From positions 87,273 to 151,272 of the forward strand of contig CAYVVS010000001.1 of the NCBI GenBank assembly GCA_964454845.1: DNA of 64,000 nt, read 5' to 3'. This DNA comes from an uncultured Candidatus Saccharibacteria bacterium. Lineage in GTDB: Bacteria > Patescibacteriota > Saccharimonadia > CAILAD01 > GCA-016700035. Every line of letters begins with the position of its first letter. Position 1 is the stretch's first letter. Made by a program: the position numbers and the translations under genes. Below are positions 1,244-59,571 of the stretch, piece by piece. The notes under the pieces are model-generated. The model saw only the letters and a list, made by a program, of their open reading frames with translations, did no database searches and was not told where the DNA came from.

Positions 1244-1630
1244 ATGGCTCGCGAAACCCGAAAAAAACGACTCTTTACGAGTGAATTCTGGCAAAACAAC
1301 TGGCTTGTGGCTTTAGTTTTCTTGCTTGTTATCTTAAACATTGCGATTACTGTGATGGTTGTGTATCAGGTAAGGCCGGTAAACTCACCAGTGCCTACTC
1401 GGTTTACGAGTTTTGCCAACTTCGACAAACTAGGGGGCTGGACGAGCTTTTATTTGCTCCCGGCAATGAGCTGGCTTGTGTCGTTTACCAACATCTATCT
1501 GGCGCAGCTAGTGTATAAGCGCAGTCGTATTACCAGTGTTGTTATGGTGGTAGCGACGTTTGTGATGGCTTTGTTGGCTTTTCAGACGTCGTCGTATTTT
1601 ATAGGAGTGAGTTATGGCCCGCGTCAATAG
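1244..1630 (+). CDS. Small integral membrane protein (hypothetical)
   Basis: ORF with 3-4 hydrophobic helices. Overlaps the downstream GT2 start by 17 nt. Start chosen at MARETRKK; alternative is 1220. Confidence 0.45.
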   Translation: MARETRKKRLFTSEFWQNNWLVALVFLLVILNIAITVMVVYQVRPVNSPVPTRFTSFANFDKLGGWTSFYLLPAMSWLVSFTNIYLAQLVYKRSRITSVVMVVATFVMALLAFQTSSYFIGVSYGPRQ

Positions 1631-3305
1631 TCTTTCTGGATCTGGGGTAGAAGCCCCGCATAGGGTGGTGCGCCTTTTGGAGGTGTTGCCAGGTTTAGCT
1701 ACCTGGGTAACGATTTTCTTGCCAATTGTTCTTTCTATGTACGCTCCGGCGGTTGTGGCTTACTTTATTATCGCTTTTGACCTCTTTTGGTTAATGAAGT
1801 CTTTCCGCATGAGCTTTGCGCTTCTAGTGGGGCACCGTCGCTTGCGAATCGCTACCCAGCTTGATTGGAAGGCGCGTCTTCGCCATCTGGAAGGCATGAT
1901 GAGCGGGGAGGGTACGGAGGAGCTTGAGCAAGAGATAGTAGGGGCTAAGCGCGAGCAGGGCTTCTTCTGGTTTCTATCTAAAAAAGGGCGTCGCAAGCAA
2001 GAGCAGTTACAGCAGCTGCACGTAGAGCTTGATAATCTGCGTAATACCGAAGCCTTTCAGAAGCCGATAAAACCTTCCGAAGTAATACATGTTGTTATTT
2101 TAGCAACGTATAGCGAAACTTTAGAGACACTCAGGCCATCGCTGAAGGCCTTAGCGCAGGTAAACTATGATCTTGATAAGATTTGGTTTGTGCTGGCTTA
2201 TGAGGAGCGTGGAGGAGATGTGGATCGCGAGCGTGTAGCTACTCTTGAGAGAGAGTTCAAGGGGCAGTTTGGTCGCTTCATGAGCTTTGAGCATCCGGAC
2301 GGCATTGTTGGTGAAGAGCGCGGTAAGGGAGCGAATATCACCCACGCTGGGCGAGAGATGCTGAAGGTGATTCGTGCGGAAAATGTGAATGTAAAACAGG
2401 TAGTCGTCACAACGCTAGACGCCGATCATCGCCCAGATCCGGAGTACTTTAACCATCTTGCATACTCGTTTTGCACTTCGGAAACACCAAAGCATTACTC
2501 ATATCAGCCAATTCCGATGTTCTTTAATAATATTTGGCACGTCCCAGCACCAATGCGTGTAATTGCTACTGGTAACTCGTTCTGGGTAATTATTAACTCC
2601 GTGCGCCCACACTTGCTCCGCAACTTTGCGAGCCACTCTCAGCCTTTGGAGGCACTTATCGATACCGATTTTTGGGCGACATGGTCGGTAGTGGAAGATG
2701 GTCACCAGTACTGGCGTAGCTACTATCGTTATAACGGGCAGTATCGGGTTGAGCCAATCTACGCACCAATTTATCAGGATGCTACGTTAGCCTCAAACTA
2801 CTTTAAGACCTTCAAAAACCAGTACTTGCAGCTGCGGCGGTGGGCATATGGAGTTTCGGACATTCCTTATGTAGCTATCCAGAACGCTCGACATCCTAAA
2901 ATCCCGGCTGGTTCTCGTACGGTACATTTTTGGCGCTTGTTTGAAGGTCATTACTCATGGGCGACTGCACCACTTATTTTGACGTTTGTTGCTTGGATGC
3001 CACTATTCCTTAACTCTACGTTTAAATACAGCGTGATCGCACACCAGCTGCCGATTATTGCCTCGCAAATTATGACGATTGCCATGATCGGTCTGTTTAT
3101 TACTATCTGGCTTTCCATTATTTCTCTACCTCAGCGCCCAAGAAGTAAAAAGAAAATTCAGGGTATTTTTATGATCTTGCAGTGGGCGCTCCTGCCAATC
3201 GTAGCTTTAGGCTTTGGTGCACTAGCAGCAATTGACGCACAAACGCGACTGATGTTTGGAAAATATCTCGGCTTTCGTGTAACCGAAAAGGCGGTGAAGG
3301 AATGA
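1614..3305 (+). CDS. Membrane-embedded processive family-2 glycosyltransferase (cellulose/chitin/hyaluronan-synthase-like)
   Basis: N- and C-terminal TM helices. Central GT-A region with DAD motif (TTLDADHRPD) and the processive-synthase signature QxxRW (QLRRW). Confidence 0.7.
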   Translation: MARVNSLSGSGVEAPHRVVRLLEVLPGLATWVTIFLPIVLSMYAPAVVAYFIIAFDLFWLMKSFRMSFALLVGHRRLRIATQLDWKARLRHLEGMMSGEGTEELEQEIVGAKREQGFFWFLSKKGRRKQEQLQQLHVELDNLRNTEAFQKPIKPSEVIHVVILATYSETLETLRPSLKALAQVNYDLDKIWFVLAYEERGGDVDRERVATLEREFKGQFGRFMSFEHPDGIVGEERGKGANITHAGREMLKVIRAENVNVKQVVVTTLDADHRPDPEYFNHLAYSFCTSETPKHYSYQPIPMFFNNIWHVPAPMRVIATGNSFWVIINSVRPHLLRNFASHSQPLEALIDTDFWATWSVVEDGHQYWRSYYRYNGQYRVEPIYAPIYQDATLASNYFKTFKNQYLQLRRWAYGVSDIPYVAIQNARHPKIPAGSRTVHFWRLFEGHYSWATAPLILTFVAWMPLFLNSTFKYSVIAHQLPIIASQIMTIAMIGLFITIWLSIISLPQRPRSKKKIQGIFMILQWALLPIVALGFGALAAIDAQTRLMFGKYLGFRVTEKAVKE

Positions 3306-4360
3306 TGTGGCTGTATCTAGCGGCGTTTCTTTCAAGTCTAGTATTGGCGTTGGTACTAACGCCGCTCGTTATTAAGTTAGCTATACGCATTGGCGCTGTT
3401 GATAACCCAAGTGAGGCTACCCGCAAAATCCATGAGCGAATCATGCCAAGGGCGGGAGGCATTGTGATTGCCTCTATATTTGTGGTGCTTAGTTTGTCGC
3501 TCACTCCTGGTGCACCAACAAAGGCTTATTGGGGAGCACTGCTCGCTAGCACGGCAGTCTTTTGTGTCGGCCTCTATGACGATGTTAAAAGGCTGAGTCC
3601 ATGGGTGAAACTTGTTGCGCAAATTACAGCAGCATTAGTAGCAATACTGTTTTTTGGAGTTGGTGTAGAAGTAATTTCTAATCCGCTCGGCCAGCAATTT
3701 AATCTGGGCAAGACTCTGGTTGAAGTCGGCGGCTACGCGGTGCCGATTATTTCTGTAATGTTTAGTCTGTTTTGGATGGTCGGCATGACAAACACCATGA
3801 ATTTTTTGGACGGTCTTGATGGCTTAGCAACTGGAGTGGGTGGTATCGCGGCATTGATCTTGTTTTTGGTCTCCGTAAACCCCCGCATTGATCAGCCAGC
3901 AACAGCTGTTATGGCGCTGATTCTTCTAGGTGCTTGTCTAGGGTTTTTACGTTACAACTTTTATCCAGCAAAAATATTTTTAGGTGATAGCGGTGCCTAT
4001 TTCTTGGGCATGATGCTGGGTAGCTTAGCGATTATTTCTGGTGCCAAGTTGGCCACTGCGCTGCTGGTATTGGGTGTTCCGGTTATCGATGCGCTTTGGT
4101 CTGTGGTTCGACGCTTAGCCCAAGGTAAGTCACCATTTACAGCCGATCGTGGTCATTTTCACTACATACTGCTTGATGCCGGCCTGAGCCAGCGGCAGGC
4201 CGTATTGTTAATTTATGCGCTTTCTTTGGCTTTTGGCTTGTTTGCTCTTTTGGGCGATGGTCTAGAAAAGCTCCTGGCGCTGATTGTATTGGTGGTGGTA
4301 GTAGCTTTACTAATGATTACTTTTACTCTTACGCGCAAACGTCACGCTAGGCGTGCCTAA
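3302..4360 (+). CDS. MraY/WecA-family polyprenyl-phosphate N-acetylhexosamine-1-phosphate transferase
   Basis: About 10 TM helices. Signature NTMNFLDGLDGLATG and DD(V)KRL loop typical of the Glycos_transf_4 (MraY/WecA/TagO) family. Start overlaps the GT2 stop (ATGA). Confidence 0.75.
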   Translation: MMWLYLAAFLSSLVLALVLTPLVIKLAIRIGAVDNPSEATRKIHERIMPRAGGIVIASIFVVLSLSLTPGAPTKAYWGALLASTAVFCVGLYDDVKRLSPWVKLVAQITAALVAILFFGVGVEVISNPLGQQFNLGKTLVEVGGYAVPIISVMFSLFWMVGMTNTMNFLDGLDGLATGVGGIAALILFLVSVNPRIDQPATAVMALILLGACLGFLRYNFYPAKIFLGDSGAYFLGMMLGSLAIISGAKLATALLVLGVPVIDALWSVVRRLAQGKSPFTADRGHFHYILLDAGLSQRQAVLLIYALSLAFGLFALLGDGLEKLLALIVLVVVVALLMITFTLTRKRHARRA

Positions 4361-6067: not shown

Positions 6068-6099
6068 AGTGGATAACTCAAAAATGTTGTGGATAACTC
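6068..6099 (+). promoter_or_regulatory. Two direct repeats (A/T)GTGGATAACTC spaced 20 bp (DnaA-box-like, TTATCCACA on the other strand) in the nrdR/giant-gene divergent region
   Basis: AGTGGATAACTC at 6068-6079 and TGTGGATAACTC at 6088-6099. The second copy contains a perfect TGTGGATAA. Confidence 0.35.
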
Positions 6100-6202
6100 G
6101 TGCGCTAGAAACAGAAAACCCCTTACGCTTCCAGGTTGCATCAGATATAATAAACACAAGCTTTTTATTGAAGGCAGCTGTGCCTGTATGCAAACCAAAG
6201 AT

Positions 6203-9200
6203 ATGAGTAAAAAAACAATCGAACATTTAAGACACGCATCAAAAAAAGCACTGTCCGTACCGGGCCGGTGTTATGTTGGTGCATCTACAGCGCGGAGTCG
6301 CACAATTGGGTCCGCGCATGAGAATCTGCAACGAAGATATAAGTGGTATGAAAAGTGGCATGCGTGGAATTTTAAGAAAATAAACCACCAGCATGTGCAC
6401 TGGGCTGTGGCAGTGTTTTATACCTTGGCGCTTTCTGCCTTGCTGCTTTTGCGTGTGGGGGTAGTACGGGCAGCCGATTTTACTGATAGTTGGGATTTCA
6501 CGAGTATTGCGGCCTTCTTGCTTGATGGGGGCGTTGAGCAGAACGGATCTTCAATAAGCTTGAAACCCCAGGGCTATAGCTCGGACGGTAGTACAGCAGC
6601 TTTGTACCATTTTGATGAGGCTGCTGGCACGAGTATTGATGATAGCTCGAGCAATAATAATGACCTCACTACCACCGGGTTACCTGGCTTTGTTAGTGGT
6701 AATTTAAACAACGCTTTGAGTTTAGATGGCACTGGTCAATACGCAAGTGTTGCTGATTCTACATCATTATCTATGACTGGACAGATGACATTAGAGGGGT
6801 GGATTAAGCCAAGTAGTACTTTTAACAACAATTCTGATTTTTCACAAACCATAATTGATAAAGGGTCGTACCGTATGGGGCTAGATCGTACAAGCGGTCG
6901 AGCCTTCTTCGAAGTTGAGAGGAGTGGTACTCAATCCTGGACGAAACGCCTTGGTGATGAGCAGTCTGGTAGTTGGTCGTTTAACCATGGAGGTTTAGAT
7001 GCCATGGTTGCAAACGGTACTGATCTTTATGCGGGTACAGGCCTCTCTACAGGTGACGCTGAGGTTTGGAAGTGGAATGGTAGTAGCTGGACAAAGATAG
7101 CTGGCGATGGGATGAACAATAGCTGGCCCGCATCGACGTATGAAAAGGTTGCTAGTCTGGCGGTGAATGGGAGCTCCCTGTATGCCGGTCTTGGTAGCAC
7201 AGCTGGTGATGCCGAGATATGGACTTGCAATATGAACACAAATTGTACCTCTTGGACAAAGATAGGCGGCGATGGGAATGGTCCGGGGGTGGCATCTCAT
7301 ACGGCGATTGAATCGATGGCTGTATATGGAGGAAACCTCTATGTAGGTGGCACGTCCACATCGGCGGGTTCCGCGGATGTATGGAAGTATAATGGCGGAA
7401 CTTCCTGGACGCAGGTTGGTGGCGACGGTCTCAATAGCGGCTGGGCGGCCTCTACCTTTGAAGCAGTGAGTGCCCTATATAGTGATGGTACTTATTTATA
7501 TGCCGGTATTGGCGTAACGACTGCCGATGGAGAAGTATGGCGCTACAACGGTACAAGTTGGACTATGATTGGTGGCGATGGAGTAAATCTTGGTGGCGGT
7601 GCATCCTGGAATACTAACTACGAACGAGTGAGCTCAATAACATCTTACGGGGGGAATCTCTACGTTGGTTTAGGTGATAGTGCAAACGATGCTGAGGTGT
7701 GGCGACTAAGCGGCACAACTTGGTCTCAGATTGGTGGCGACGGCCTGAATAGCGGCTGGGCGGGGACAGCGGCGTTAACTCGAGTTTATTCTATGGTAAA
7801 TGACGGAACGAATCTCTATGTAGGCTTGGGTAGTGGATCTGGGGCGGCACAGGTTTGGAAATGGAACGGCAGTTCTTGGACGGGACTCTCGGTGGGGGGC
7901 GGTAATACTACGACTTCTTGGACATCAAGTATGATTGGTGCGATGGTTTGGGCGAATAGTAAACTCTACGCTGCGCCTTCGTCTAGTTCGAATTATGGCT
8001 CTGGAGTGTACGAATACAACGGCAGTGCCTGGAACCTCATAGGTGGCTGGTTTGTAAATGGCAGTTGGGGTGGGGCGGATATTACTCGTATTATGTCCTC
8101 TACAACTCATGACGGAAAACTTTATTATGGACTTGGCTTCGCGACCAACAATGCTCAGGTTTATGAATACGACGGCACTACCTCTCGTCGTGTAGGCGGC
8201 TCTGGTCTTAATGGTAGCTGGCCAGCTTGGGCTTACGAAGGTGTCTATTCTATGGCTTCCTACAAAGGGAATCTCTACGTTGGGCTAGGCTCAGGAGCTG
8301 GCGATGGCGAAGTTTGGCGTTGGGATGGCTCGAACTGGACTCAAGTTGGTGGCGATGGAGTTGGATCGAGCTGGAATAGCGGTGAAGCGGCTGTACTTTC
8401 AATGACAGTGTTTAACGGCAATCTATATATAGGCCTTGGTAGTGGAGCTTATCAGGGGGATCTCTGGCAATACAATGGTTCTACTTGGACGCTTGTTGCT
8501 GGCGAGCCTGCTAGTGGTATTGGCGGCCAGGTGAATGGATCGTGGAATGTGAACCCGCGTGGAGTAGAGACCATGGTTGTGTATAACGGCCAGCTCTGTG
8601 CCGGACTAGGCGGCAGTGGAGCTTGGGGAGAAGTTTGGTGCTGGAGTGGTTCAGGCAATTGGACAAAAATAGGTGGAGGCAATGCTGTTTCTGTGAACGG
8701 AAGTTGGTCGAGTTCAATTGCGGTTTTGGCGATGGCAACTTACCGTGATAAGTTATATGCCACGATTCGCACAAGTGGCCAAGCTGCTTCTATCTGGGAA
8801 TGGGATGGTTCAACTTGGACACAGGTAGCTGGCGCTGACCTCAATGGGAGCTGGAGTGACAGCACATATACCTGGGCGCGCACCATGGCAGTTTATAATG
8901 GCTACCTGTATGCAGGCACTGGTTATAGCGGCGCATCTAACCCAACTGGTGACGTTTGGCGTTGGGATGGCTCAACCTGGACACAGGCTGGTGGGGACGG
9001 AATAGCCAATAGCTGGACGACATCAGATCAGCGCGAAGAAGTGGGCGACCTCATTACTTACAAAGGGAAGCTATACGCGGCAACTGGGTATACGGGTAAT
9101 TCAGATGCGTTAGTGTATTCTTTTGGGGATAATGCATATACGGAGTCGGCAACTAGTTCTTTTGATACTAATTGGCATCATTTGGCAGGTGTTTATGATG

Positions 9201-12200
9201 GAACGAGTATAAAGATATATATTGATGGCGTTCAGGATGGGTCCGTAGCTGTAGGTGGTGTGTCGGTTGATAATGATAGGCCCTTGCTGATTGGTTCAGG
9301 GTTCGGTTCTTTGCAGGCGGGAGATAGTCGAAGGCGCTTTAACGGGCAGATTGATGAGGTGCGCATAAGTAGCACGGCACGCTCTAGTTTTACAGCAAAG
9401 CCGTATCTTAATACTGAACAGAGCGTGACATTATCGGATCCAATACGCACTAGTGGTATTGCGTCGTGGGTCGGATTTAATGCTAACGAGACAACAAATG
9501 GCGGGACAATTACGTATCGCTTGAGCAGTGATGATGGGGCGACATGGAAGTATTGGAACGGCGGTGCTTGGTCTACTTCGACAGAACTTAGCCAGTCGAG
9601 TAGTGCTACCGATGTTAATGCTCACATTGTCGATTTTCCAGTAACCTTCTCGGGCCTTCGTTGGCAGGCAGTCTTGAAGGGTGATGGCTCACAGAAAGTC
9701 ACGCTTGATTCGGTAGACATAACTTCAGATGCTGATAATGACGCGCCAATTGCGAATGCAACAAACTTACAGGCATTTACTAGTAATGGGGGTACTCAGC
9801 TCAATGATGCAGCCTGGACCAACTCTGCAACACCGTATTTTACTTGGGATGCTGCCTCTGATGCTGCAAGCGATATTTACGGGTACTGTCTCTACTTAGG
9901 GCAGTCAGCTTCTGATGATCCGGCGAGCAGCAAAGGGCTATTAGGAAGCTCTCCTGTAGATACGGGTGGGCACTGCCAATATGCTGTAAGCACTACATCG
10001 TTAGATCTGTCGCAGCCCGGAGTGTTGGCAACAGCCCTCAGTACGTCAGGCAGTAGCTATTATCTCAATGTGAAGGCGCTTGATGCTGCCGGAAATCTCT
10101 ATGGCTCATCTCAACAGTTTGAGTTTAAATTTGATAACACAGCACCATCGAATCCAAACTACATTAACGCTCCATCTCAGTTTGTGTCATCTAAGGAGGT
10201 AACTTTTACTTGGCCAACTACTGGGGGAGATGCCGCAGCTGACGCAAATTCTGGCGTGGTTGGTTTACAGTATAGAATTGGTGCAAATGGTACTTGGAGG
10301 GGTGACGGCACGGGAGGTTCTGGCAATCTTGCGAATGATGGCTCGTATACTACTCGTGACAACCCTGACTATGCCGACATTAATAATGGCAACAATGTGT
10401 TTTACTTCCGCACAATTGACGCTGCTGGTAATGTTAGTGCGAGCTATGTCTCGGCAACGTTACGGCTAAATACAGGTGCGCCAACAGGTCCACAAAATGT
10501 TACTGCTACACCGAGTACCAATACAAGCAACAACTTTGCTTTCTCTTGGGATCCACCCGCTAGTTATGCTGGTACTCCCGGTGCATTGACGTATTGTTAT
10601 ACCGTGAACACATTGCCAACCGAAAATACTTGTACGTTTACTGCAGCTGGAGTAACGAGTTTGTCTGCGGGAGCATATGCGACTCAGCCTGGTGAGAATA
10701 CTTTCTATGTTGTAGCTAAAGATAATAATATAAATTACGCTACTGCTGCGAGTACTACATTCACGGCGAACACCTCTGCACCAGGCATGCCACTCGATCT
10801 CGAGATTGCCGATATCTCCACTAAGGCTACTTCTTCGTGGAAGATCGCGCTGTCTTGGTCTGAGCCAACTGATACGGGAGCTGGTGTAGCGAGCTATAAA
10901 GTGTTCCGTTCGGCCACTGATTCTAATTACACGCAGATTGCCAGTACTGCTGGCGCAAGCTTTGTAGACTCTGGTCTGAGCCAGCAGACGTATTACTATA
11001 AGGTGAAAGCTTGTGATAGTGCCAACAACTGTGGCGCATTGAGCTCGAGCGTAAATAAATATCCGACTGGCCGCTTCACTACACCAGCTAATGCAACGTC
11101 AAACCCCGAGGTATCCAATGTAAGTACTCGCAAGGCTACCATCCGCTGGTCAACGGACAGAGTGAGTGACAGTAAGGTTTCAATCGGTACTGCTTCTGGA
11201 CAATATGAACCATTCCAGATAGCTAGCGGAGATCAAGTAACCGATCATACTATTCAGCTCACAAACCTCACGCCGGGAACCACGTATTTTGCTAAGGCTT
11301 CTTGGACTGATGAGGATGGGAATACTGGCAACTCTACAGAGTTCACATTCCAGACCGAACCTGCTCCATCTACTCAAGAAGTAAATACTACTCGAGTCGG
11401 CCTGAACTCTGCCCAGATCCGCTTAACTTCTGTGAGCGCTGCGCGCGTAGTTATTCAATATGGTAAGTCCGATAGCTTTGGTGGGGTAAAAGAGATTGCC
11501 ACATCGCTTTCTCGCTCTACCTACGATGTGGAACTTACAGGGCTGGATGATGACACAAAGTATTTCTACCGGCTCAACACCTACGACGCCGATGGCAATG
11601 AGTATGTAGGCAGTACTGTGTTAACTTTTACAACACCTGCGCGTCCTCGTATCTCTGATCTACGCTTTGAACCTGTGAGTGGCGAGCCAACTAGCACCCA
11701 AAAGGTTACTTGGAAAACAAATGTTGATACTACTTCTGGGGTGACATATGGCAAAGAAGGAACCAATGGCACTGATATACTGAATTCTACCCTCACTCGA
11801 GAGCATGAAATTATTATCCGAGGACTCGATGATAATAGTATTTATTTCTTAATTGCTCAGAGTCGCGATGTGGACGGTAATCTTGCGGCCTCTGATAGGC
11901 AAACTTTCCAAACTGCTCTGGATACACGACCTCCAACAATTAAAGATTTGGCCGTGGAGACAGTTGTGAAGGGCACAGGTAGTGATGCCCGTGGGCAGAT
12001 TATAGTGACTTGGACCACTGATGAGCCATCAACCAGTCAGGTTGCCTTTGGCGAAGGCACATCTTCAGAAAGTGTCACGAGTATGACCACTGAAGACGCC
12101 AATCTAACTACTGAACATGTTGTGATTGTGTCTGATCTTTCGACGGCACGCGTGTACAACATACAGGCTATCTCACGAGATAAGGCTCGCAATGAGGCTA

Positions 12201-12301
12201 AGTCTGAGAGTCAGTCGACGATCATTAACCGTGGTACAGATTCGATCCTCTCGATTATCGTCAATGTCCTCCAGCAAATATTCGGGTTTGAGGCAAACTA
12301 G
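6203..12301 (+). CDS. Giant surface protein 1 (about 2033 aa)
   Basis: Single long ORF, 2070 aa from the first ATG at 6089; the real start is probably 6188 or 6203. Domain order: basic N-terminus, one TM helix (WAVAVFYTLALSALLLL), LamG-like lectin, about 14 tandem 50-54-aa repeats (…LYxGxGxxxxDAEVWxWNGxxWTxIGGDG…), second LamG-like domain, many FN3-like units, conserved amphipathic C-terminal tail. Stop TAG at 12299-12301 is 1 nt before the next gene's ATG. Confidence 0.75.
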   Translation: MSKKTIEHLRHASKKALSVPGRCYVGASTARSRTIGSAHENLQRRYKWYEKWHAWNFKKINHQHVHWAVAVFYTLALSALLLLRVGVVRAADFTDSWDFTSIAAFLLDGGVEQNGSSISLKPQGYSSDGSTAALYHFDEAAGTSIDDSSSNNNDLTTTGLPGFVSGNLNNALSLDGTGQYASVADSTSLSMTGQMTLEGWIKPSSTFNNNSDFSQTIIDKGSYRMGLDRTSGRAFFEVERSGTQSWTKRLGDEQSGSWSFNHGGLDAMVANGTDLYAGTGLSTGDAEVWKWNGSSWTKIAGDGMNNSWPASTYEKVASLAVNGSSLYAGLGSTAGDAEIWTCNMNTNCTSWTKIGGDGNGPGVASHTAIESMAVYGGNLYVGGTSTSAGSADVWKYNGGTSWTQVGGDGLNSGWAASTFEAVSALYSDGTYLYAGIGVTTADGEVWRYNGTSWTMIGGDGVNLGGGASWNTNYERVSSITSYGGNLYVGLGDSANDAEVWRLSGTTWSQIGGDGLNSGWAGTAALTRVYSMVNDGTNLYVGLGSGSGAAQVWKWNGSSWTGLSVGGGNTTTSWTSSMIGAMVWANSKLYAAPSSSSNYGSGVYEYNGSAWNLIGGWFVNGSWGGADITRIMSSTTHDGKLYYGLGFATNNAQVYEYDGTTSRRVGGSGLNGSWPAWAYEGVYSMASYKGNLYVGLGSGAGDGEVWRWDGSNWTQVGGDGVGSSWNSGEAAVLSMTVFNGNLYIGLGSGAYQGDLWQYNGSTWTLVAGEPASGIGGQVNGSWNVNPRGVETMVVYNGQLCAGLGGSGAWGEVWCWSGSGNWTKIGGGNAVSVNGSWSSSIAVLAMATYRDKLYATIRTSGQAASIWEWDGSTWTQVAGADLNGSWSDSTYTWARTMAVYNGYLYAGTGYSGASNPTGDVWRWDGSTWTQAGGDGIANSWTTSDQREEVGDLITYKGKLYAATGYTGNSDALVYSFGDNAYTESATSSFDTNWHHLAGVYDGTSIKIYIDGVQDGSVAVGGVSVDNDRPLLIGSGFGSLQAGDSRRRFNGQIDEVRISSTARSSFTAKPYLNTEQSVTLSDPIRTSGIASWVGFNANETTNGGTITYRLSSDDGATWKYWNGGAWSTSTELSQSSSATDVNAHIVDFPVTFSGLRWQAVLKGDGSQKVTLDSVDITSDADNDAPIANATNLQAFTSNGGTQLNDAAWTNSATPYFTWDAASDAASDIYGYCLYLGQSASDDPASSKGLLGSSPVDTGGHCQYAVSTTSLDLSQPGVLATALSTSGSSYYLNVKALDAAGNLYGSSQQFEFKFDNTAPSNPNYINAPSQFVSSKEVTFTWPTTGGDAAADANSGVVGLQYRIGANGTWRGDGTGGSGNLANDGSYTTRDNPDYADINNGNNVFYFRTIDAAGNVSASYVSATLRLNTGAPTGPQNVTATPSTNTSNNFAFSWDPPASYAGTPGALTYCYTVNTLPTENTCTFTAAGVTSLSAGAYATQPGENTFYVVAKDNNINYATAASTTFTANTSAPGMPLDLEIADISTKATSSWKIALSWSEPTDTGAGVASYKVFRSATDSNYTQIASTAGASFVDSGLSQQTYYYKVKACDSANNCGALSSSVNKYPTGRFTTPANATSNPEVSNVSTRKATIRWSTDRVSDSKVSIGTASGQYEPFQIASGDQVTDHTIQLTNLTPGTTYFAKASWTDEDGNTGNSTEFTFQTEPAPSTQEVNTTRVGLNSAQIRLTSVSAARVVIQYGKSDSFGGVKEIATSLSRSTYDVELTGLDDDTKYFYRLNTYDADGNEYVGSTVLTFTTPARPRISDLRFEPVSGEPTSTQKVTWKTNVDTTSGVTYGKEGTNGTDILNSTLTREHEIIIRGLDDNSIYFLIAQSRDVDGNLAASDRQTFQTALDTRPPTIKDLAVETVVKGTGSDARGQIIVTWTTDEPSTSQVAFGEGTSSESVTSMTTEDANLTTEHVVIVSDLSTARVYNIQAISRDKARNEAKSESQSTIINRGTDSILSIIVNVLQQIFGFEAN

Positions 12302-12302
12302 C

Positions 12303-13142
12303 ATGGGTATGATTGATTTTGCCAGCATAAATAAGGACTTTGTTCTTCCGAATGAAACCATTCATGTATTAAAAGATGTGAATTTTTCTATACCTGAAGA
12401 GTCTTTTACGATTATGTATGGTCCTTCTGGCAGTGGTAAATCAACACTCTTAAATGTAATGGTTGGCTTAGAGGAGCCCACAACTGGCAAGGTGTCTCTT
12501 GCTGGCCAAGATTTATATTCTATGAACGCAGATCAGAGAGCTAATCATCGAGCACGATTGGTTGGCATGGTGTATCAATCGAATTATTGGGTGAATTCTT
12601 TAAGTGTTATCGAGAATGTTGCGATGCCACTGTATTTAGCGGGAGTGTCTCGCCGCGAGGCAGCTAAAGAAGCAATGGTAAGTTTAGAGAAGGTAGGTAT
12701 GCAGCAGTATGCTAAATCACGCCCGACAGTACTCTCTGGCGGTCAACAACAGCGAGTATCAATTGCTCGGGCGTTAGCTGGAGACCCTACTTTGATTGTC
12801 GCAGACGAACCAACTGGTAACTTAGACACAAAGAATGGCGATATGATTATGAATATGTTGTATGAATTACGACATAGAATGGGTAAAACGGTAGTGATGG
12901 TAACTCATAATCTTGGTTACTTGCCTCTGAGCGATCATCGTTTGCAGCTAAAGGACGGCATGGTGATTGCTGAAGAGGGTGAGTACGGGCTAAATAAAGA
13001 TGATAAGTCGAAGCTTCTTGAGGATTTTCAGAAAAGTATTAATGTTTTGTCTAGTGAGGAAGCATCAAGCACAAAAAATGTTGGTAAAAATACAGCAAAA
13101 CCTGCAGGTATAGATGGCATCTCGAAAGGAGGCAAAAAGTGA
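12303..13142 (+). CDS. ABC transporter ATP-binding protein, MacB/LolD/FtsE family (cassette 1)
   Basis: Walker A GPSGSGKST, Q-loop, signature LSGGQQQRV, Walker B LIVADEPT, H-loop. Start ATG 1 nt after the giant-1 stop. C-terminal ~60-aa Lys-rich tail. Confidence 0.85.
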   Translation: MGMIDFASINKDFVLPNETIHVLKDVNFSIPEESFTIMYGPSGSGKSTLLNVMVGLEEPTTGKVSLAGQDLYSMNADQRANHRARLVGMVYQSNYWVNSLSVIENVAMPLYLAGVSRREAAKEAMVSLEKVGMQQYAKSRPTVLSGGQQQRVSIARALAGDPTLIVADEPTGNLDTKNGDMIMNMLYELRHRMGKTVVMVTHNLGYLPLSDHRLQLKDGMVIAEEGEYGLNKDDKSKLLEDFQKSINVLSSEEASSTKNVGKNTAKPAGIDGISKGGKK

Positions 13143-14410
13143 GTTCTGCGCCCTTGTCACCGAAGAGCTCAGCAGCTCCGCAAGCCTCAGGAGCTCATGC
13201 TCGGACTGATCGCTCACGCTACATTAAGCGTTCAATAATTTGGTACGTTGCGCTTAAAAATCTGTTTGCTAAGAAGCTTAGGTCATCGTTGACCATTGGT
13301 GGCGTGGTAATTGGTATTGGGGCAATTGTGTTTTTGGTGTCATTGGGGCTTGGTCTGCAAAAAGTGGTTACCGAACAAGTAGTTGATTCAAAGTCTGTCC
13401 GTACTGTTGACATTACTTCCCCTAAGCCAAAGACCGTCCGTCTCGATGATGATGCTTTGCAGAAATTTAAGGCGATTAATCATGTAGATACTTTGGCGAC
13501 GAATTATTCAGCTGCCGGAAAAGTAGTATTTCAATCCGCAAATCTTGATTCCGTGGTAAATGGCCCAGACCCTACGTACACAGAACTTAATAATTTTAAG
13601 CGACTGGCTGGTGATACTTCTAAGATCACGGGGCTCGATCAGGTGGTTATCAATGAGGCGCTCGTAAATACGTTTGGTGTGAAAGACCCACAGAAAATGA
13701 TTGGGCAGCAGATGACAGTAAAGATCCCTAAGCTAGAAACAGCCGAAGGGACAGAAGAAGTTGAGCAGACCGCGAAAGTGGTGGCAGTGGTACGAACTGG
13801 TTCTGGTGCGGAAGTTTTCTTAAGCCCGCAAGTGTTTCAGCGCGCCCAAGCACGTAGCTATAGTCAGGTAAAGCTCTTAACTGATGTGCAAGAGAATGTG
13901 CCGGCCGTCCGACGTTCGATAGAAAGCCAGGGCTTTACGACAACTTCACCAGTAGATACGTTGGAGCAGATTAACCAAGTCTTCTCAATTCTTACGATTC
14001 TTCTAGCGGGTTTTGGGGCGATCGGTATGGTGATTGCAGTTTTGGGCATGATCAACACTCTTACCATCTCACTTTTGGAGCGCACGAAAGAGATTGGACT
14101 TTTAATTTCTCTCGGAGCACGTAAGAAGGACGTACGTAGACTGTTTGTGATTGAGGCCTTATTACTTTCTTTGATTGGTGGCATCGTTGGAATCCTTGGT
14201 GCTTGGCTTTTAGGTAAGGGGATAAATACGGCAATTGCCAATCTTGCTCGCTCCCGTGGTGTAGAAGATGCTTTTTCCTTCTTCTTTATCCCGTTCTGGC
14301 TGATTCTCGCAATCTTTGCATTTACGGCCACAATTGGTTTTCTCGTGGCATTTTTCCCGGCCCGACGAGCGAGTCGCATTAGCCCGATTGATGCGCTTCG
14401 ACACGACTAA
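13139..14410 (+). CDS. ABC permease, MacB/FtsX family (4 TM, large extracytoplasmic domain) (cassette 1)
   Basis: TM1, then a ~220-aa MacB-type extracytoplasmic domain, then the FtsX 3-TM bundle (…LTISLLERTKEIGLL…). GTG start overlaps the ATPase stop (GTGA). SD AAGGAGG 6 nt upstream. Confidence 0.8.
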   Translation: MSSAPLSPKSSAAPQASGAHARTDRSRYIKRSIIWYVALKNLFAKKLRSSLTIGGVVIGIGAIVFLVSLGLGLQKVVTEQVVDSKSVRTVDITSPKPKTVRLDDDALQKFKAINHVDTLATNYSAAGKVVFQSANLDSVVNGPDPTYTELNNFKRLAGDTSKITGLDQVVINEALVNTFGVKDPQKMIGQQMTVKIPKLETAEGTEEVEQTAKVVAVVRTGSGAEVFLSPQVFQRAQARSYSQVKLLTDVQENVPAVRRSIESQGFTTTSPVDTLEQINQVFSILTILLAGFGAIGMVIAVLGMINTLTISLLERTKEIGLLISLGARKKDVRRLFVIEALLLSLIGGIVGILGAWLLGKGINTAIANLARSRGVEDAFSFFFIPFWLILAIFAFTATIGFLVAFFPARRASRISPIDALRHD

Positions 14411-27238: not shown

Positions 27239-28651
27239 ATGCGCAAACGTAGCGAGTTATTTTTTAACCTTTTATTGGTCCCGCTGGATGCCGCGGCTGT
27301 ACTTGCAGGCTTTGTAACTGCTTATATTATTCGTGTTGAATATTCATTAAAACCAACTGTCTATCAGGTTCCGGGTTGGGAATATCTATATGCACTGGTT
27401 GCGCTCTTGCCGTTTGCAGTCTTCTTTTTTGCGCTAGCCGGGCTGTATCGTTACGAGTCTATGCGCAGTCGCTGGCGTGAATATTCTCAGGTGGTGATTG
27501 CTGTTTCAGCGAGCACCATGTTTTTGATTATTGTAGACTTTTTTTCAACAAAACCGCTTTTTCCTTCGAAGGCGGTAGTTTTTTATGGTTTTGCGTTGGC
27601 GACTGTTTTGGTGGTGGCTGAGCGTTTCATTGTGAACCTTTTTCAGCGTTGGCTCTTCCGCTTTGGCATTGGCATTCGTCAAGTGGTCGTTGTCGGTGTT
27701 GGGCGCGTTGCCGACGATGTAACATATGCATTGCAGCGTAACCCAGGCTTTCGCTTGGTGCGTGTTTTAGAGCGCAAGAAAGACACGCTTACGCAGCTCG
27801 AGAAGCTCGCAAAGAAGCACACCATAGATGAGCTGTTTATCGCCGATAAAACTCCAGCTGAAGCAGATCAGCTCGAGTATATACGGTTTGCTCATAATAA
27901 CCACATTGCCTACAAATTTATTCCAAGCCTTGCAGGTATTTATCAGACTCGTAGCCAGCCTTCATTGTATGCGGACTATCCGGTACTAGAAATCGTGCGA
28001 ACGCCCCTCGATGGGTGGTGGAGAATCTACAAAACAGTCTTTGATTACATGGGGGCTTTTCTGGGTATTATTCTGCTGAGTCCAATATTCCTTGTAGTAG
28101 CGCTAGTGATTAAGCTCACCGACGGCGGCAAGGTGTTCTATCGTCATGCGCGTATTGGGAGGCACGGTCGAGTTGTGCGGGTTTGGAAGTTTCGTTCGAT
28201 GTATGCGAAGTATTCTACTGGTGGTGCTTTTAGTAGTAAGTCGGATCTGGAAATTCTACGCGAAATTGGTGGCGAGAACATGGTAGAAGAATTTAAGCGT
28301 GATCAAAAACTCAAGAAAGATCCGCGAGTCACTCCGATTGGGCGTTTTTTGCGAGCAACCAGTATTGATGAATTGCCTCAACTATTTAATGTGCTGATGG
28401 GTGAGCTGAGCTTAATTGGGCCACGCCCTGTTACAGAGGCTGAGTTAGCACGCTATAAAGATAAGGCACCAACGTTTCTATTGATTAAACCAGGGATTAC
28501 TGGTTTGTGGCAGGTGTCTGGTCGAAACGATGTGAGCTATGACGAACGCATTAAGCTCGATGTGTATTATGTTGAAAACTGGAAAGCTTCCCTGGATTTA
28601 CGTATTTTGTTCCGCACTATTGGCGTGATCTTTAAGCGGAAGGGTTATTAA
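27239..28651 (+). CDS. Polyprenyl glycosylphosphotransferase (WbaP/CpsE-type bacterial sugar transferase)
   Basis: 5 N-terminal TM helices. C-terminal catalytic domain with …DELPQLFNVLMGELSLIGPRP… signature. Confidence 0.8.
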   Translation: MRKRSELFFNLLLVPLDAAAVLAGFVTAYIIRVEYSLKPTVYQVPGWEYLYALVALLPFAVFFFALAGLYRYESMRSRWREYSQVVIAVSASTMFLIIVDFFSTKPLFPSKAVVFYGFALATVLVVAERFIVNLFQRWLFRFGIGIRQVVVVGVGRVADDVTYALQRNPGFRLVRVLERKKDTLTQLEKLAKKHTIDELFIADKTPAEADQLEYIRFAHNNHIAYKFIPSLAGIYQTRSQPSLYADYPVLEIVRTPLDGWWRIYKTVFDYMGAFLGIILLSPIFLVVALVIKLTDGGKVFYRHARIGRHGRVVRVWKFRSMYAKYSTGGAFSSKSDLEILREIGGENMVEEFKRDQKLKKDPRVTPIGRFLRATSIDELPQLFNVLMGELSLIGPRPVTEAELARYKDKAPTFLLIKPGITGLWQVSGRNDVSYDERIKLDVYYVENWKASLDLRILFRTIGVIFKRKGY

Positions 28652-28656
28652 CTCGT

Positions 28657-29811
28657 ATGGCAGTTCGCGATATCGCAACTTTGCGAGTAGCGGTAGTGCA
28701 TGATTGGCTCACCAATATAGCGGGCGCCGAAAAAGTGGTGTTTGAAATGCTAAAAGTGTTTCCACAAGCCGAGGTATTTACAAGTGTGTATCGGCCAGAG
28801 GTGTTTGGAGATGCCCTGAAAGGCCATAAGGTTCATGCTTCTTTTCTTCAGAAAGTACCCTTCGCTCGAAAGAAGCATCAGCTTTTTCCGGTTCTACGGC
28901 GATACGCCTTTGAGAGCTTTGATTTTTCTGATTATGATCTTGTCATCAGCTCTTCAACGGCGGAAGCTAAGGGGATTATTACTCCGGAATCTACGCTGCA
29001 TATATCATATATCCATACCCCGACGCGGTATTTCTGGAGTCATTACGATCAGTATAGTAAAAATCCAGGGTTTGGTGTGCTCGATCCTGTGGTGCGTTTT
29101 CAGCTGAAGCGTACAATTAAGGCGTCGCGTCAGTGGGATTTTGCTGCGGCGCAGCGTCCAGATGTATTGCTAGCAAATTCTCTAACAGTACAGAAGCGTA
29201 TAGAGAAATACTATAAACGGGCCGCTGAGGTGCTGTATCCGCCGGTTGATACCAAGCGCTTTGCCAAGCCTCACTCAAGACCCAGTGATGTGCCTGATAG
29301 CTACTTTGTGGTTGCTTCTCGGCTTATTCCGTATAAACGCTTTGATATTGCCGTACAGGCATCTCAGAAGGCTGGTAAGCAGCTCGTAGTTGTGGGTGGT
29401 GGTAGTGAGCTTAAGAAACTCAAAGAGATGGCTGATGATAGTGTCATATTTAAGGGCCATGCTACTGATGACGACTTGGTAGCGTACGTACAGCATGCCG
29501 AGGCGCTGCTTTTCCCTGGGGAGGAAGATTTTGGCATAGCTCCTGTGGAGGCGATGGCCGCGGGCACTCCTGTAATCGCATATGCTTCTGGCGGAGCGAC
29601 AGAAACTGTTATCCCTGGTGAAACTGGCGAACTTATACAATCTCAGTCAGTAGGCGCTTTTACCGAAGCACTTACTGGTTTTGAAGCTCAAAATTACTCA
29701 ACCCAGACTTTGCAGAAACACGCCGAGAAGTTTAGCGAATCAAATTTTAGTGAGCAGCTGCGGAAAGTGGTAGGCGAGGGGCTCAAGCGTGCAAGTTCGC
29801 ATTATACATAG
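28657..29811 (+). CDS. Glycosyltransferase family 4 (GT-B)
   Basis: C-terminal GT4 Rossmann domain with the EX7E-like region (…FPGEEDFGIAPVEAMAAGTPVIA…). Confidence 0.7.
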   Translation: MAVRDIATLRVAVVHDWLTNIAGAEKVVFEMLKVFPQAEVFTSVYRPEVFGDALKGHKVHASFLQKVPFARKKHQLFPVLRRYAFESFDFSDYDLVISSSTAEAKGIITPESTLHISYIHTPTRYFWSHYDQYSKNPGFGVLDPVVRFQLKRTIKASRQWDFAAAQRPDVLLANSLTVQKRIEKYYKRAAEVLYPPVDTKRFAKPHSRPSDVPDSYFVVASRLIPYKRFDIAVQASQKAGKQLVVVGGGSELKKLKEMADDSVIFKGHATDDDLVAYVQHAEALLFPGEEDFGIAPVEAMAAGTPVIAYASGGATETVIPGETGELIQSQSVGAFTEALTGFEAQNYSTQTLQKHAEKFSESNFSEQLRKVVGEGLKRASSHYT

Positions 29812-31186
29812 AAAAACAATTGTAGTTTCTCTGGCGATATTTGGGTTGTTTTTAGTTATCACTCAGCCCTTGTATAAGCTTCTTGTCCCTACAGAACAGC
29901 TTCAGTTGCAAAATAGACCAGCTTATCAGCTCTACTCGGCGCTAACACAGGCTGATCATCCTACTCGAACTCTCCTGGTGTTTGCAAATCATGCAGAACA
30001 ACGCATTGGTGGTGGGTTTGTAGGAAGTGTCGGAGTTCTCGAGGGGGTAAATGGTTCGCTTAAGCTCGAATCGGTGCGGAGTGTGTACTACTATGATCAC
30101 CGCACAGAAGAGAAAGGGCCATTTGTCGAACCACCTGAGTATCTAAAAAACCTTACAGGGAGTTTAGCGGCACGTGACTCACTCATTGCAACTGATAGCG
30201 ATTCGAATGCTCGGCTATTCAGGGATTTATTTGCACGAGAAACAGGTGAGCATATTGATAATGTTGTTATAATTACACCAAAAGTACTTTCCTTAATTCT
30301 CTATTACACTGGACCGATTGAATTACCTGAGTATTCATTGACGGTTACCCGAGAGAATATTCTATCCACCCTGCAGCAGGAGGTAGAAGCCGGTCAAGAT
30401 AAGGTCGCCGGTAAAGACCCAAAAACTATACTAAAAGTATTGGCTGATAAGATGTTTGAAAAGTTACCTCAGCTAAATACTGTTCAATTAGCTCAATTGG
30501 GTGACGACGTTACGGGGTTGATGCAGACACAGCAGCTCTACGCATATCTAGATGATGGGCGAGTTATGAGGGAGTTGGCAAGTTATCAAGCCCCAGTTGC
30601 TAAGCCCGGAGATTCGAATGCTTTACAGGTGGCTGCAGCAAATCATGCAGCAAATAAATCCTCACAGGCAATTGCTCAAACTGTAAAATATACACTAAAG
30701 ATTGCGGGTGATGGGCAAGCGCGCCTCCTCGTCGAGATAGTCCGTAAACATCAATCGGACTATGCTGGTTTCTACATCGATCCAAAAAGTGGCGGCCAGA
30801 ATTTCATCGTGGGGGATGACTTGAGCTGGCTTCAGATAACAGTGCCGGCTGGTACTGAGGATGTTCTGCCAACGGGGCTGATGCAACAGAAGGATCCTAC
30901 GGTTTTTGGTGCAGATATACTCACAAAACCTCTAACTACAAGCTCTGTGTCAGAAGAGTTTATCCTGCCGGTGCGCTACGCCATGCTGGATGAGGTGGCG
31001 ATTGATCAGGCACTTTTAGCGCAGTTTGGATGGTTTGGGCAGCAGGTAGACTTTCAGGTTGAGTTGCCCGAAGGATATACTTTTGCGAGAGGCTCTGATG
31101 GTGTTCAGGGCGCTGGTCGTACTGCTGGCCGTCAGTTTTTCCAGATTGATGATGAGAAAATGCAGTTTGTATTTGTAAAACAATAA
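29789..31186 (+). CDS. Hypothetical membrane-anchored extracytoplasmic protein
   Basis: N-terminal TM anchor, 465 aa, sits inside the glycan cluster. No family assigned. Confidence 0.4.
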   Translation: MQVRIIHRKTIVVSLAIFGLFLVITQPLYKLLVPTEQLQLQNRPAYQLYSALTQADHPTRTLLVFANHAEQRIGGGFVGSVGVLEGVNGSLKLESVRSVYYYDHRTEEKGPFVEPPEYLKNLTGSLAARDSLIATDSDSNARLFRDLFARETGEHIDNVVIITPKVLSLILYYTGPIELPEYSLTVTRENILSTLQQEVEAGQDKVAGKDPKTILKVLADKMFEKLPQLNTVQLAQLGDDVTGLMQTQQLYAYLDDGRVMRELASYQAPVAKPGDSNALQVAAANHAANKSSQAIAQTVKYTLKIAGDGQARLLVEIVRKHQSDYAGFYIDPKSGGQNFIVGDDLSWLQITVPAGTEDVLPTGLMQQKDPTVFGADILTKPLTTSSVSEEFILPVRYAMLDEVAIDQALLAQFGWFGQQVDFQVELPEGYTFARGSDGVQGAGRTAGRQFFQIDDEKMQFVFVKQ

Positions 31187-37109: not shown

Positions 37110-37148
37110 TGCTCTTATGATACCCGAACCAGAGAAAAAACGTAAGAG

Positions 37149-58771: not shown

Positions 58772-59571
58772 GTCAGTCTCTTGTTTCTTTCCGCGATGTC
58801 TCGCGTGATTTTCGTGCTATAGATGGTACGGTGAGTGTTTTGAAGGATATAAATTTTGAGGTAGAACCTGGTAGTTTTACTATTATTTATGGACCTTCTG
58901 GTAGTGGTAAGACAACAATTTTGAATATGATTTTGGGTCTTTTGCCGCCAACCAAGGGGGATGTCGTGGTGGCCGGGCAAAGCTTGTATGATCTCAATCA
59001 AGATGGTCGTGCAAAGTTTAGGGCCGCACATTATGGTGTGGTGAGCCAAGTGAATAACTGGGTCCTCAGTATGAATGTGCAGGAGAATGTTGCCCTGCCG
59101 TTATATCTTTCGGGTACTCCACGTCATGAAGCACTTAAGAAGGCTGCGGCTAGCATTGAGCGTGTTGGGCTTGCGAAGTATATGCGCTACAATCCGGCAG
59201 TGTTGTCAATTGGTCAACAACAGCGCATTTCTATGGCGCGAGCTACCGTAAAAACACCGCAACTTTTGATAGCTGACGAGCCGACCGGCAACCTTGATAC
59301 CACGAATGGCGACATGATTATGCAGCTGATGACCAGCTTTAGAAATCATGAAAATACTACAGTGATTTTGGTTACACACAATCTTGATTATCTTTCTTTA
59401 AGTAGCCATAGATTATTCTTAAAAGATGGCGTGCTCTCAATTGATGAGGGCGGCTACCAATCCGAAGAAGAGCGTCGTCGCATGCTGATGACAAGCTTCT
59501 TGGAGGTGAATAAGGCGGCTGAAATACAACCAGCAAAAGTTCCTGTAAAGAGAGGTGGTAAACGTGGCTGA
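58768..59571 (+). CDS. ABC transporter ATP-binding protein, MacB/LolD/FtsE family (cassette 2)
   Basis: Walker A GPSGSGKTT, LSIGQQQRIS signature, Walker B LLIADEPT. Paralog of 12303-13142. ATG overlaps the giant-2 stop (ATGA). Confidence 0.85.
   Translation: MSQSLVSFRDVSRDFRAIDGTVSVLKDINFEVEPGSFTIIYGPSGSGKTTILNMILGLLPPTKGDVVVAGQSLYDLNQDGRAKFRAAHYGVVSQVNNWVLSMNVQENVALPLYLSGTPRHEALKKAAASIERVGLAKYMRYNPAVLSIGQQQRISMARATVKTPQLLIADEPTGNLDTTNGDMIMQLMTSFRNHENTTVILVTHNLDYLSLSSHRLFLKDGVLSIDEGGYQSEEERRRMLMTSFLEVNKAAEIQPAKVPVKRGGKRG

Follow-up and report, generated by a model that had tools for sequence, protein, structure and literature searches.

Why should two giant proteins with different heads finish in a similar tail of about 25 residues, and why should a gene for an ATP-binding cassette (ABC) ATPase begin where that tail ends? 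The question is raised by the window analyzed here, the whole stretch of 64,000 nucleotides (nt) from contig CAYVVS010000001.1 of an uncultured Candidatus Saccharibacteria bacterium. I suggest, with somewhat less than even confidence, that the tail is a handle by which a dedicated MacB-type transporter holds or works on the Sec-exported giant at the outer face of the membrane. The parts in question, forming two three-gene modules, are the following.

6089-12301, + strand: gene of giant 1, 2070 codons from a GTG start, by open reading frame and translation
12221-12298, + strand: tail of giant 1, IINRGTDSILSIIVNVLQQIFGFEAN, made up of the end of the last strand, the linker RGTDS, the amphipathic helix and a 3-residue extension
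12303-13142, + strand: ABC ATPase of module 1, a LolD/FtsE/MacB-like nucleotide-binding protein (Pfam ABC_tran, 2.4e-32)
13139-14410, + strand: MacB-type permease of module 1, with a MacB_PCD extracytoplasmic domain and an FtsX C-terminal membrane domain (MacB_PCD 3.2e-19, FtsX 3.6e-21)
54323-58771, + strand: gene of giant 2, 1482 codons, with a DUF2341 head unlike that of giant 1
58685-58768, + strand: tail of giant 2, IIGRGTENIFSIIFNALQAIFGFGDTNL, its helix at about 58709-58747, placed by homology to giant 1
58768-59571, + strand: ABC ATPase of module 2, whose ATG overlaps the giant 2 stop (ATGA)
59555-60847, + strand: MacB-type permease of module 2 (MacB_PCD and FtsX, by Pfam)

The tail and the genes behind it

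The translation of giant 1 ends in QSTIINRGTDSILSIIVNVLQQIFGFEAN and that of giant 2 in QTAIIGRGTENIFSIIFNALQAIFGFGDTNL. A sequence-only reading of the window had reported both tails as they read, placing that of giant 2 exactly (58688-58768) and the 25-residue string of giant 1 slightly off, since it begins at 12224, not 12226. The same reading held that the tail stops where the ATPase gene starts, and so it does. The TAG of giant 1 occupies 12299-12301 and is followed after 1 nt by ATG at 12303, and in module 2 the stop and the start overlap in ATGA (58768-58771). In 58 of 77 modules the distance from the giant's stop to the ABC start lies between -8 and +13 nt.

How widespread is such a terminus? 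A genomic scan, taking one genome from each of 185,579 species, gave 577 relatives, and the best 80 of the 577 were inspected. The 79 best loci lie in metagenome-assembled genomes labelled almost all as Saccharibacteria, Saccharimonadia or Patescibacteria; homologs of giant 1 are present in 81 loci. The homologous giants do carry the tail: it is found in all 85 distinct giants of the 79 loci, 0-6 residues from the C-terminus, and its full motif in them is A-I-I-G-R-A-S-D-S-V-L-[TS]-I-[IV]-[LF]-N-[TA]-L-[QRK]-[KR]-[IV]-F-G-[FLI]. When the last 124 residues served as query in a word-indexed protein search, 11 fragments came up, and all 11 end in the tail.

The reach of the tail by itself was judged with a tail-only profile of 30 positions, scored against 1.84 billion representative proteins. 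It gave 56 matches, 54 of them true, and every true one lies at the extreme C-terminus (in one case 14 residues from the end) of a protein of 1000-2000 amino acids or a fragment, behind the same last FN3-like domain. A hidden Markov model of the tail, run with filters off over all open reading frames (ORFs) of the window and loci (about 0.9 Mb), picked out 89 giant ORFs and nothing else, the next best having E = 0.39. Since the tail is invariably joined to this one FN3-like domain, it marks the end of a single protein family; the idea of a portable sorting tag common to many was dropped on that ground. Scans of the giants found no Pfam or NCBIfam model that covers it. No description of the tail or the module was found in the literature on FtsX/MacB in Saccharibacteria, transposon sequencing (Tn-seq) of Southlakia, giant genes of Patescibacteria, YtrEF, or mechanotransmission with amphipathic helices. 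An FN3 protein of the cultivated Southlakia strain, SEML1_0890, proved to be small and unrelated.

The co-occurrence of the tail with FtsX-type ABC genes is as strict as the tail itself. In 79 of 79 loci, as in both modules of the window, the same-strand order is giant, ABC ATPase, MacB_PCD/FtsX permease (L001 and L002 have this order too). The same is true when one sets out from the permease alone: four of four homologs, 45-53% identical and picked for their long contigs, stand behind an ATPase and a tailed giant of about 2000 amino acids. Even where the tail has diverged (IIGQ..., ...IFGRRN, VVGRGRDNVFGIVLGAL...), the ABC pair follows in 3 of 3 loci, and the giants of these loci stand in tandem with unlike heads (DUF2341, PA14 and LamG). 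The opposite case, the motif on a protein with no ABC/FtsX neighbors, was met neither with the profile over 1.84 billion proteins nor with the hidden Markov model over about 0.9 Mb. More than 90 modules have been examined in the two directions together, and in each the giant precedes the ABC ATPase and permease, directly or by way of a second tailed giant. No other conserved neighbor (adaptor, protease, sortase) was found among the loci.

The second tailed giant deserves notice. Four of the 79 loci have two of them in tandem before one ABC pair, and a 2:1 ratio of giant to transporter genes would match a dimeric permease. Tandem tailed giants before a single ABC-permease pair are seen in L041, L042, L047, L056, L086, L087 and L088, often with different heads (DUF2341, PA14, LamG). 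The tails of giants that share a transporter are no more alike than the neighboring domains (the window pair left out), so there is no sign of concerted constraint specific to the tail.

Modules are also repeated within a genome. A genome of about 0.8-1.3 Mb may hold several, at about 8.5 kb per module, some of them directly adjacent; several copies are kept even below a genome size of 1 Mb. There are three in JAYRII (L005, L012, L073) and four in CALKUN (L013, L021, L047, L070); L031 and L035 adjoin each other on JAYRRP010000003.1, as do L018 and L067 on JAUHZB010000003.1. The two modules of the window lie 46 kb apart, and CAZYFT010000001.1 likewise has two (L003, L066). In L085 a second MacB-type ABC pair (9227-11384, - strand) adjoins the module and lacks a giant. 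The permease of this pair and that of the module share only 28% identity, which indicates that linkage to a giant belongs to a specific permease subfamily.

Character and conservation of the tail

Three further features are needed here.

11939-12235, + strand: last FN3-like beta-sandwich of giant 1, final strand QSTIIN, the best conserved stretch between both giants
12245-12283, + strand: predicted amphipathic alpha-helix ILSIIVNVLQQIF of the giant 1 tail, from an AlphaFold2 model and the hydrophobic moment
12290-12293, + strand: GAGG, likely Shine-Dalgarno site of the ABC gene, in the last codons of giant 1 and 9 nt before the ABC ATG

From its start to its end the tail consists of the last beta-strand (AIIGR), a linker of 4-5 residues (ASDS), an amphipathic helix of 13-16 residues, and a free carboxyl end. 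The consensus of the helix is VL[TS]II[LF]N[TA]L[QRK][KR][IV]FG[FLI]. An AlphaFold2 model of the last 124 residues of giant 1, built on a 13-sequence alignment, has a beta-sandwich at residues 5-101, where the block values of predicted confidence (pLDDT) are mostly 73-80, then a five-residue linker, then a helix at 107-119 by DSSP with pLDDT of about 50. Such a value suggests that the helix is not packed on the FN3-like domain. The tail is, by this model, predicted to be a free amphipathic helix.

The hydrophobic periodicity noticed in the sequence-only reading is genuine: the moment peaks at 100 degrees per residue, with a value of 0.42 vs 0.21 +/- 0.11 in shuffles. In giant 1 the polar face is made of S, N, Q and Q, and nine hydrophobic residues lie on the other face; across the family a helical wheel has a narrow polar stripe of Ser/Thr, Asn, Gln/Arg/Lys and Lys/Arg/Gln. 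That this is no classical transmembrane helix was also rightly seen. The best Kyte-Doolittle mean over 19 residues is 1.07-1.18, while the usual transmembrane level is 1.6, and a transmembrane anchor is ruled out both by this hydrophobicity of about 1.1 and by length, 13-16 helical residues with conserved Asn and Gln/Arg/Lys. A charge-based lipid-binding discriminant D has a mean of 0.35, with 17% of tails above 0.68 and none above 1.34. Net charges of the helix run from -2 to +2, most of them between 0 and +2, and both window tails have a charge of 0. Unpacked, weakly hydrophobic and low in lipid-binding discriminant, the helix appears, if the model is a guide, to need a partner.

One impression did not last, that the tail is far better conserved than the FN3 units before it. 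Between the two giants the tail is 64% identical, where the mean is 45% and the highest value, reached within the last FN3 domain, is 80%. Over 72 homologs it has 3.06 bits per column vs a mean of 2.79, which puts it at rank 196 among 878 windows. Its conservation matches that of the FN3 domain cores and is no higher. The polar-face Asn, along with Leu, Phe and Gly of the tail, is 88-100% conserved, and as far as an alignment can tell this residue conservation is more specific than generic lipid-binding helices need.

Is it the protein that is conserved, or the DNA? The tail lies against the start of the ABC gene, and its constraint might be imposed by the needs of that gene, a ribosome-binding site and translational coupling. 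There is something to this. In 76% of modules the terminal F-G has GGA or GGG as its Gly codon, vs 29% for other Gly codons of the same genes (p = 5e-18), and this codon lies 8-12 nt before the ABC start. The last codons or extensions supply Shine-Dalgarno-like purine strings 8-14 nt before the start, and longer endings such as LGEGN encode, for example, AGGAGAGGG. The junctions examined for this overlap were those of the window (12284-12305 and 58754-58770) and of loci L003-L081. The codon bias and the extensions together argue that the last residues of the giant double as the ribosome-binding site of the ABC gene. But this covers only the final 2-6 codons. Over the 25 tail codons, homologs use different codons at 65% of the positions where the residue is identical, which argues that selection on the tail acts at the level of the protein. 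Furthermore, the upstream giant of a tandem pair, whose next gene is another giant and not the ABC gene, still carries the tail. A DNA-level cause for the tail as a whole is hardly credible; it was given up for the helix and kept only where the final Gly and the extension are concerned.

The giants, the transporter and their likenesses

If the tail is to meet a transporter on the outside, the giant must get there. Two segments bear on this.

6401-6472, + strand: N-terminal hydrophobic segment of giant 1, then ...VRA/ADF, predicted signal-peptide core and AxA-type site
54629-54709, + strand: N-terminal hydrophobic segment of giant 2, then ...ARA/FD, predicted signal-peptide core and site

Giant 1 is laid out as a long basic N-region, the hydrophobic segment, a repeat-rich head with Laminin_G_3, an FN3-like array of about 900 amino acids, and the tail; Pfam finds Laminin_G_3, fn3 and Pur_ac_phosph_N in it. 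An ATG about 100-115 nt downstream of the GTG may be the true start. The Kyte-Doolittle mean of its hydrophobic segment is 2.2 over 17 residues, and over 19 residues the segments of both giants reach 2.0-2.1. Most full-length homologs share the N-terminal order of a WHxW/HK-rich region, a hydrophobic segment, an AxA-like site and DLxDxWDFS. This layout looks like a long signal peptide that would be cleaved. No Cys follows the AxA-type sites, and there is no lipobox. The region before the segment is unusually long, 80-110 residues, and has a Trp/His/Lys-rich WHxWxHKxVH directly before the signal segment (6188-6472 and 54323-54709 in the window; L004-L080).

Beyond the N-terminus, the two giants of the window are 45% identical over the last ~920 alignment columns (879 and 909 residues). 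The family keeps the same plan: heads vary, a repeat region plus LamG, DUF2341 or PA14, and a conserved FN3-like array of ~900 amino acids follows, and then the tail. Among the 35 giants of the 2050-residue class, identity per column rises from 0.40-0.51 over the N-terminal half to 0.57-0.66 over the final 900 residues, and stands at 0.67 for the tail. Searches of PDB sequences with the FN3 array and both heads found no relative of solved structure. The giants are probably a Saccharibacteria-specific family of surface proteins, exported by Sec if the predicted signal is a true one.

What kind of transporter follows them? Both permeases have MacB_PCD and FtsX above the Pfam cut-off, and both separate ATPases have ABC_tran, the type VII layout. 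The closest solved chains to the permease are YtrF of B. subtilis (9o9x, 1.1e-24), MacB of three species (5gko/5lil/5nik, 4.7e-24) and the S. pneumoniae protein 5xu1 (1.2e-21). LolE/LolF are much weaker relatives, and no FtsX is among the solved chains at E <= 1e-3. The best NCBIfam matches of the ATPase are LolD, FtsE, YbbA, DarD and MacB, all below their equivalog cut-offs: LolD scores 203/182 bits vs a cut-off of 307.75. The lolCE model gives 66/71 vs 362, likewise below cut-off. The permeases score 35.5/26.1 vs 255 with FtsX_Gneg, 31-32 vs 250 with FtsX_actino and 29-30 vs 225 with FtsX_Gpos. A match of the ATPase to TIGR03608, the model of lactococcin-972-type bacteriocin ABC proteins, is also below cut-off (1.2e-48). 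With every equivalog below cut-off and a MacB-like layout, the pair is best described as a MacB-type (type VII) ABC system of no named subfamily.

MacB-type systems have no transmembrane channel and use ATP to do work in the extracytoplasmic space, as in efflux with MacA/TolC, extraction of lipoproteins by LolCDE and control of hydrolases by FtsEX (PMC5985334). It follows that the giant must use its own N-terminal signal, and that the tail cannot direct export from the cytoplasm in the way of a type I signal. The sequence-only reading had offered the tail as an in-plane membrane anchor, a dimerization helix or a signal for the adjacent FtsX-type ABC system. The last idea stands insofar as the genes are linked without exception and falls insofar as it means export from the cytoplasm. 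A type I secretion signal, which goes with a six-helix ABC exporter, a membrane fusion protein and a substrate that has no N-terminal signal peptide, was likewise set aside: the neighbors are MacB_PCD/FtsX proteins with separate ATPases, there is no conserved adaptor gene, and the giants have an N-terminal signal-like segment.

Several known systems invite comparison. Short conserved extreme C-termini that strictly co-occur with a specific membrane machine bring to mind the sorting signals (LPXTG/sortase, PEP-CTERM/exosortase, GlyGly-CTERM/rhombosortase), though the tail module has no transpeptidase or protease partner and the tail is on a single protein family. The claims that the tail is no LPxTG signal and that the window holds no sortase are both upheld. 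No LPxTG, NPxTG or LPx[AS]G occurs in the C-terminal regions of the giants, and no LPXTG motif in any ORF of the window; TLxTC is absent from window ORFs of at least 50 amino acids, and no sortase domain was found in the 28 larger ORFs scanned. Unlike LPXTG proteins, the giants end 0-6 residues after FGx, without a transmembrane helix of ~20 residues and a basic cluster. An NCBIfam scan of both giants at E <= 0.01 matched none of the CTERM models (PEP-CTERM, GlyGly-CTERM, MYXO-CTERM etc.). Its only match was to the MXAN_2561 family, at 35.8 bits vs a cut-off of 150, in the FN3 region at residues 1387-1449.

FtsEX, with its partners EnvC, PcsB, CwlO and RipC, also has the MacB fold, transports nothing across the membrane, binds a helix of a Sec-exported partner outside and relays an ATP-driven movement to it (PMC5985334), a contact that I infer for the tail. 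It differs from the module in several respects. The module permease has a full MacB_PCD and scores 26-36 bits vs FtsX cut-offs of 225-255. Its partner is an FN3 array of 1500-2000 amino acids with no hydrolase or activator domain, encoded in one operon with the transporter, and the candidate contact is a terminal helix of 13-16 residues, vs the long coiled coil of FtsEX partners. LolCDE is a MacB-type complex as well. At the outer leaflet it recognizes the membrane-embedded hydrophobic anchor that an exported protein carries, as the module would in the reading proposed here, and LolD is the best NCBIfam match of the module ATPase. Unlike LolCDE, the module is found in a monoderm host without an outer membrane, its Lol matches are below cut-off, and it has one permease gene vs the LolC/LolE pair. 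The giants lack a lipobox, and their anchor would be a peptide helix at the C-terminus instead of acyl chains at the N-terminus.

Closest by sequence are the Gram-positive MacB-type transporters (YtrEF, YknYZ, Spr0694-0695 of S. pneumoniae, BceAB), with the same domain layout and a separate ATPase gene. They are tied to small peptides or antibiotics, often with an adaptor, whereas the module has no adaptor and always has a giant gene in its operon. Lactococcin 972-type operons resemble the module in gene order, an exported protein gene and then an ABC ATPase and an FtsX-type permease. Lactococcin 972 itself is a small bacteriocin, whose ABC pair is thought to serve export or immunity, and the module product is instead a conserved giant with a specific tail. 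Finally, the C-terminal amphipathic helices of the MinD/FtsA type are also short and terminal, with a moment peak near 100 degrees, and a tail that ends ...L[KR][KR][IV]FG presumably resembles the membrane-targeting helices of the MinD type, which I take as a lead only. Those helices work on the cytoplasmic face and tolerate much sequence variation; the tail helix, on a protein predicted to be extracytoplasmic, is conserved at the level of single residues. Judging by sequence, I rate the module as a mechanotransmission system of the MacB type, new in the kind of partner it has and in the terminal motif of that partner, which resembles FtsEX, LolCDE and the sorting signals and is a member of none.

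Proposed docking on the transporter and its alternatives

I propose that the giant would cross the membrane by Sec and have its N-terminal signal peptide cut off. The tail would then be its only membrane-proximal element, the helix sitting at the outer face of the cytoplasmic membrane, where a dimer of the co-translated MacB-type permease would engage it. The transporter would keep the giant on the cell, variable head outward, and ATP hydrolysis in the cytoplasm would let it do mechanical work on the giant from outside, much as FtsEX does on EnvC/PcsB or LolCDE on lipoprotein anchors. This reading is favored by the residue-specific conservation, that of the polar-face Asn included, and by a helix that is unpacked by itself. 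It is favored also by the persistence in tiny genomes of a transporter copy for each class of giant, though the tails are nearly interchangeable, and by the tandem operons that have two giants for one transporter.

There is a good deal that weighs on the other side. The functional link between giant and transporter is argued from synteny, as read in the best 80 of the 577 genomic matches; the contact between tail and permease is a deduction from it, and the cleavage of the signal peptide is a prediction. The tail always accompanies the same FN3 array, and the linkage could be owed to some other part of the giant. The tails of paralogous modules are very similar, which makes paralog-specific recognition by the tail unlikely. 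Distances between tails track the cytoplasmic ATPase (partial r 0.43) as well as they track the extracytoplasmic domain (0.39; partial Mantel test, 74 modules). This speaks of co-inheritance of the module only, and the co-evolution of distance matrices was not accepted as an argument for contact between tail and permease.

The distances themselves present a difficulty. Over the 74 modules the mean pairwise distance is 0.37-0.38 for the last FN3-like domain and tail, 0.51 for the ATPase, 0.45-0.59 for the permease and 0.59 for the extracytoplasmic domain. No part of the module is less conserved than the extracytoplasmic domain (0.59), and the tail is among the most conserved parts (0.37). For the two sides of a fixed interface this would be strange, except if the site were in the membrane or stalk region. 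It is unusual in any case for a surface protein that its last domain and tail should be more conserved than an ABC ATPase and permease.

What else might the tail be doing? It might partition into the outer leaflet of the producer's own membrane, from which the MacB-type transporter would pull it out, to release the giant, to hand it over, or to protect the producer from a membrane-active tail directed at a host. Much about the transporter agrees with such extraction: its closest solved relatives are MacB, S. pneumoniae 5xu1 and YtrF, its ATPase matches the lactococcin-972-type model TIGR03608, and some homologs bear the JGI label 'antimicrobial peptide transport system permease'. The MacB-type systems that are known have their substrates at the outer face of the membrane (PMC5985334), with comparable cases in LolCDE and lipoproteins, HrtBA and heme, and the peptide-resistance pumps of MacB type, and the helix can be viewed as short, amphipathic and strongly hydrophobic. 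I nonetheless consider extraction unlikely. The giants are strongly conserved in the manner of housekeeping proteins, not of fast-evolving weapons, and release of a giant whose signal peptide has been cleaved would lose a protein of 1500-2000 amino acids to the medium. An extractor, moreover, is a catalyst, and with tails so alike a very small genome needs no copy of it for each paralogous giant. Several complete modules, and tandem giants for one transporter, agree less well with a single, general catalytic extractor than with a stoichiometric complex on a dimeric permease.

The helix might instead bind the lipid surface by itself, as an autonomous in-plane anchor, and the ABC pair be linked to the giant in another way, through export or handling of a ligand or through contact with another part of the giant. 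The clear helical amphipathicity, with its moment peak at 100 degrees, and the one or two basic residues near the end in many family members are what such an anchor might have. A near-invariant Asn on the polar face is more residue-specific than it calls for, net charge is variable (0 in both window tails) and the lipid-binding discriminant low, and both the exceptionless linkage and the translational coupling would go unexplained, so that I hold this decidedly unlikely. The last-named objection in part, strict ABC linkage, applies equally to the thought that the tails of at least two giants pack against each other in a small helical bundle, which would join the giants at the membrane-proximal end or at the distal one. 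Helix-helix packing would be suited by a hydrophobic face that is wide and a conserved polar stripe that is narrow, the helix is unpacked in the model of the monomer, and some operons have tandem giants with different heads. But 13-16 residues are short for a stable bundle, and oligomerization as the purpose of the tail seems very unlikely.

Docking on the transporter, if accepted, can be carried a step further, to a view that I put forward as somewhat unlikely in its entirety. The three-gene module might be an unrecognized system of anchoring and actuation in Saccharibacteria, in which a dedicated MacB-type ABC dimer grips the tail of one or two giants as an ATP-powered base. Through it the cell would move, tension or release giant surface structures whose heads differ (LamG, DUF2341, PA14), perhaps in touching the bacteria that are its hosts.

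The rest of the window has its own points of interest. Clusters of glycosyltransferase and sugar-transferase genes at 1614-4360, 27239-31186 and 36048-40535 (GT2, GT4, Bac_transf, MGDG_synth-like, DUF4012, with BacA and MurT/GatD-like genes) place the giants among genes of cell-envelope biosynthesis. A third giant ORF, 46209-54158 on the - strand, has 2649 codons, with an N-terminal membrane segment, a very long NHL-repeat region (ScyF-like, 556 bits), further membrane segments and then a histidine-kinase module at its end, and so is a giant sensor kinase without the tail; a relative is present in only 8 of the loci fetched. Its stop overlaps the start of a gene for an S8 (mycosin-like) peptidase (44455-46212, - strand). 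Directly after module 2, at 60850-63093 (+ strand), is the gene of a 747-residue protein with NIDO, FN3-like and CarboxypepD_reg domains. It ends, in contrast to the amphipathic tail, in a classical transmembrane helix and a basic cluster (...HFIIELMLITGLSLLFILVVEKRSSNKLSSKTK), and its gene is not conserved beside the module in other loci.

Patescibacteria, Saccharibacteria among them, live attached to other bacteria, and little has been established about how they build and hold their surface structures. What comes out of the analysis is a compact, searchable unit of three genes and a 25-residue motif that marks it. If the tail is indeed the handle of a transporter, then the uses of mechanotransmission ABC systems would extend beyond efflux, release of lipoproteins and control of hydrolases to the anchoring or actuation of giant surface proteins, and experiments on those proteins would have a concrete point of entry.

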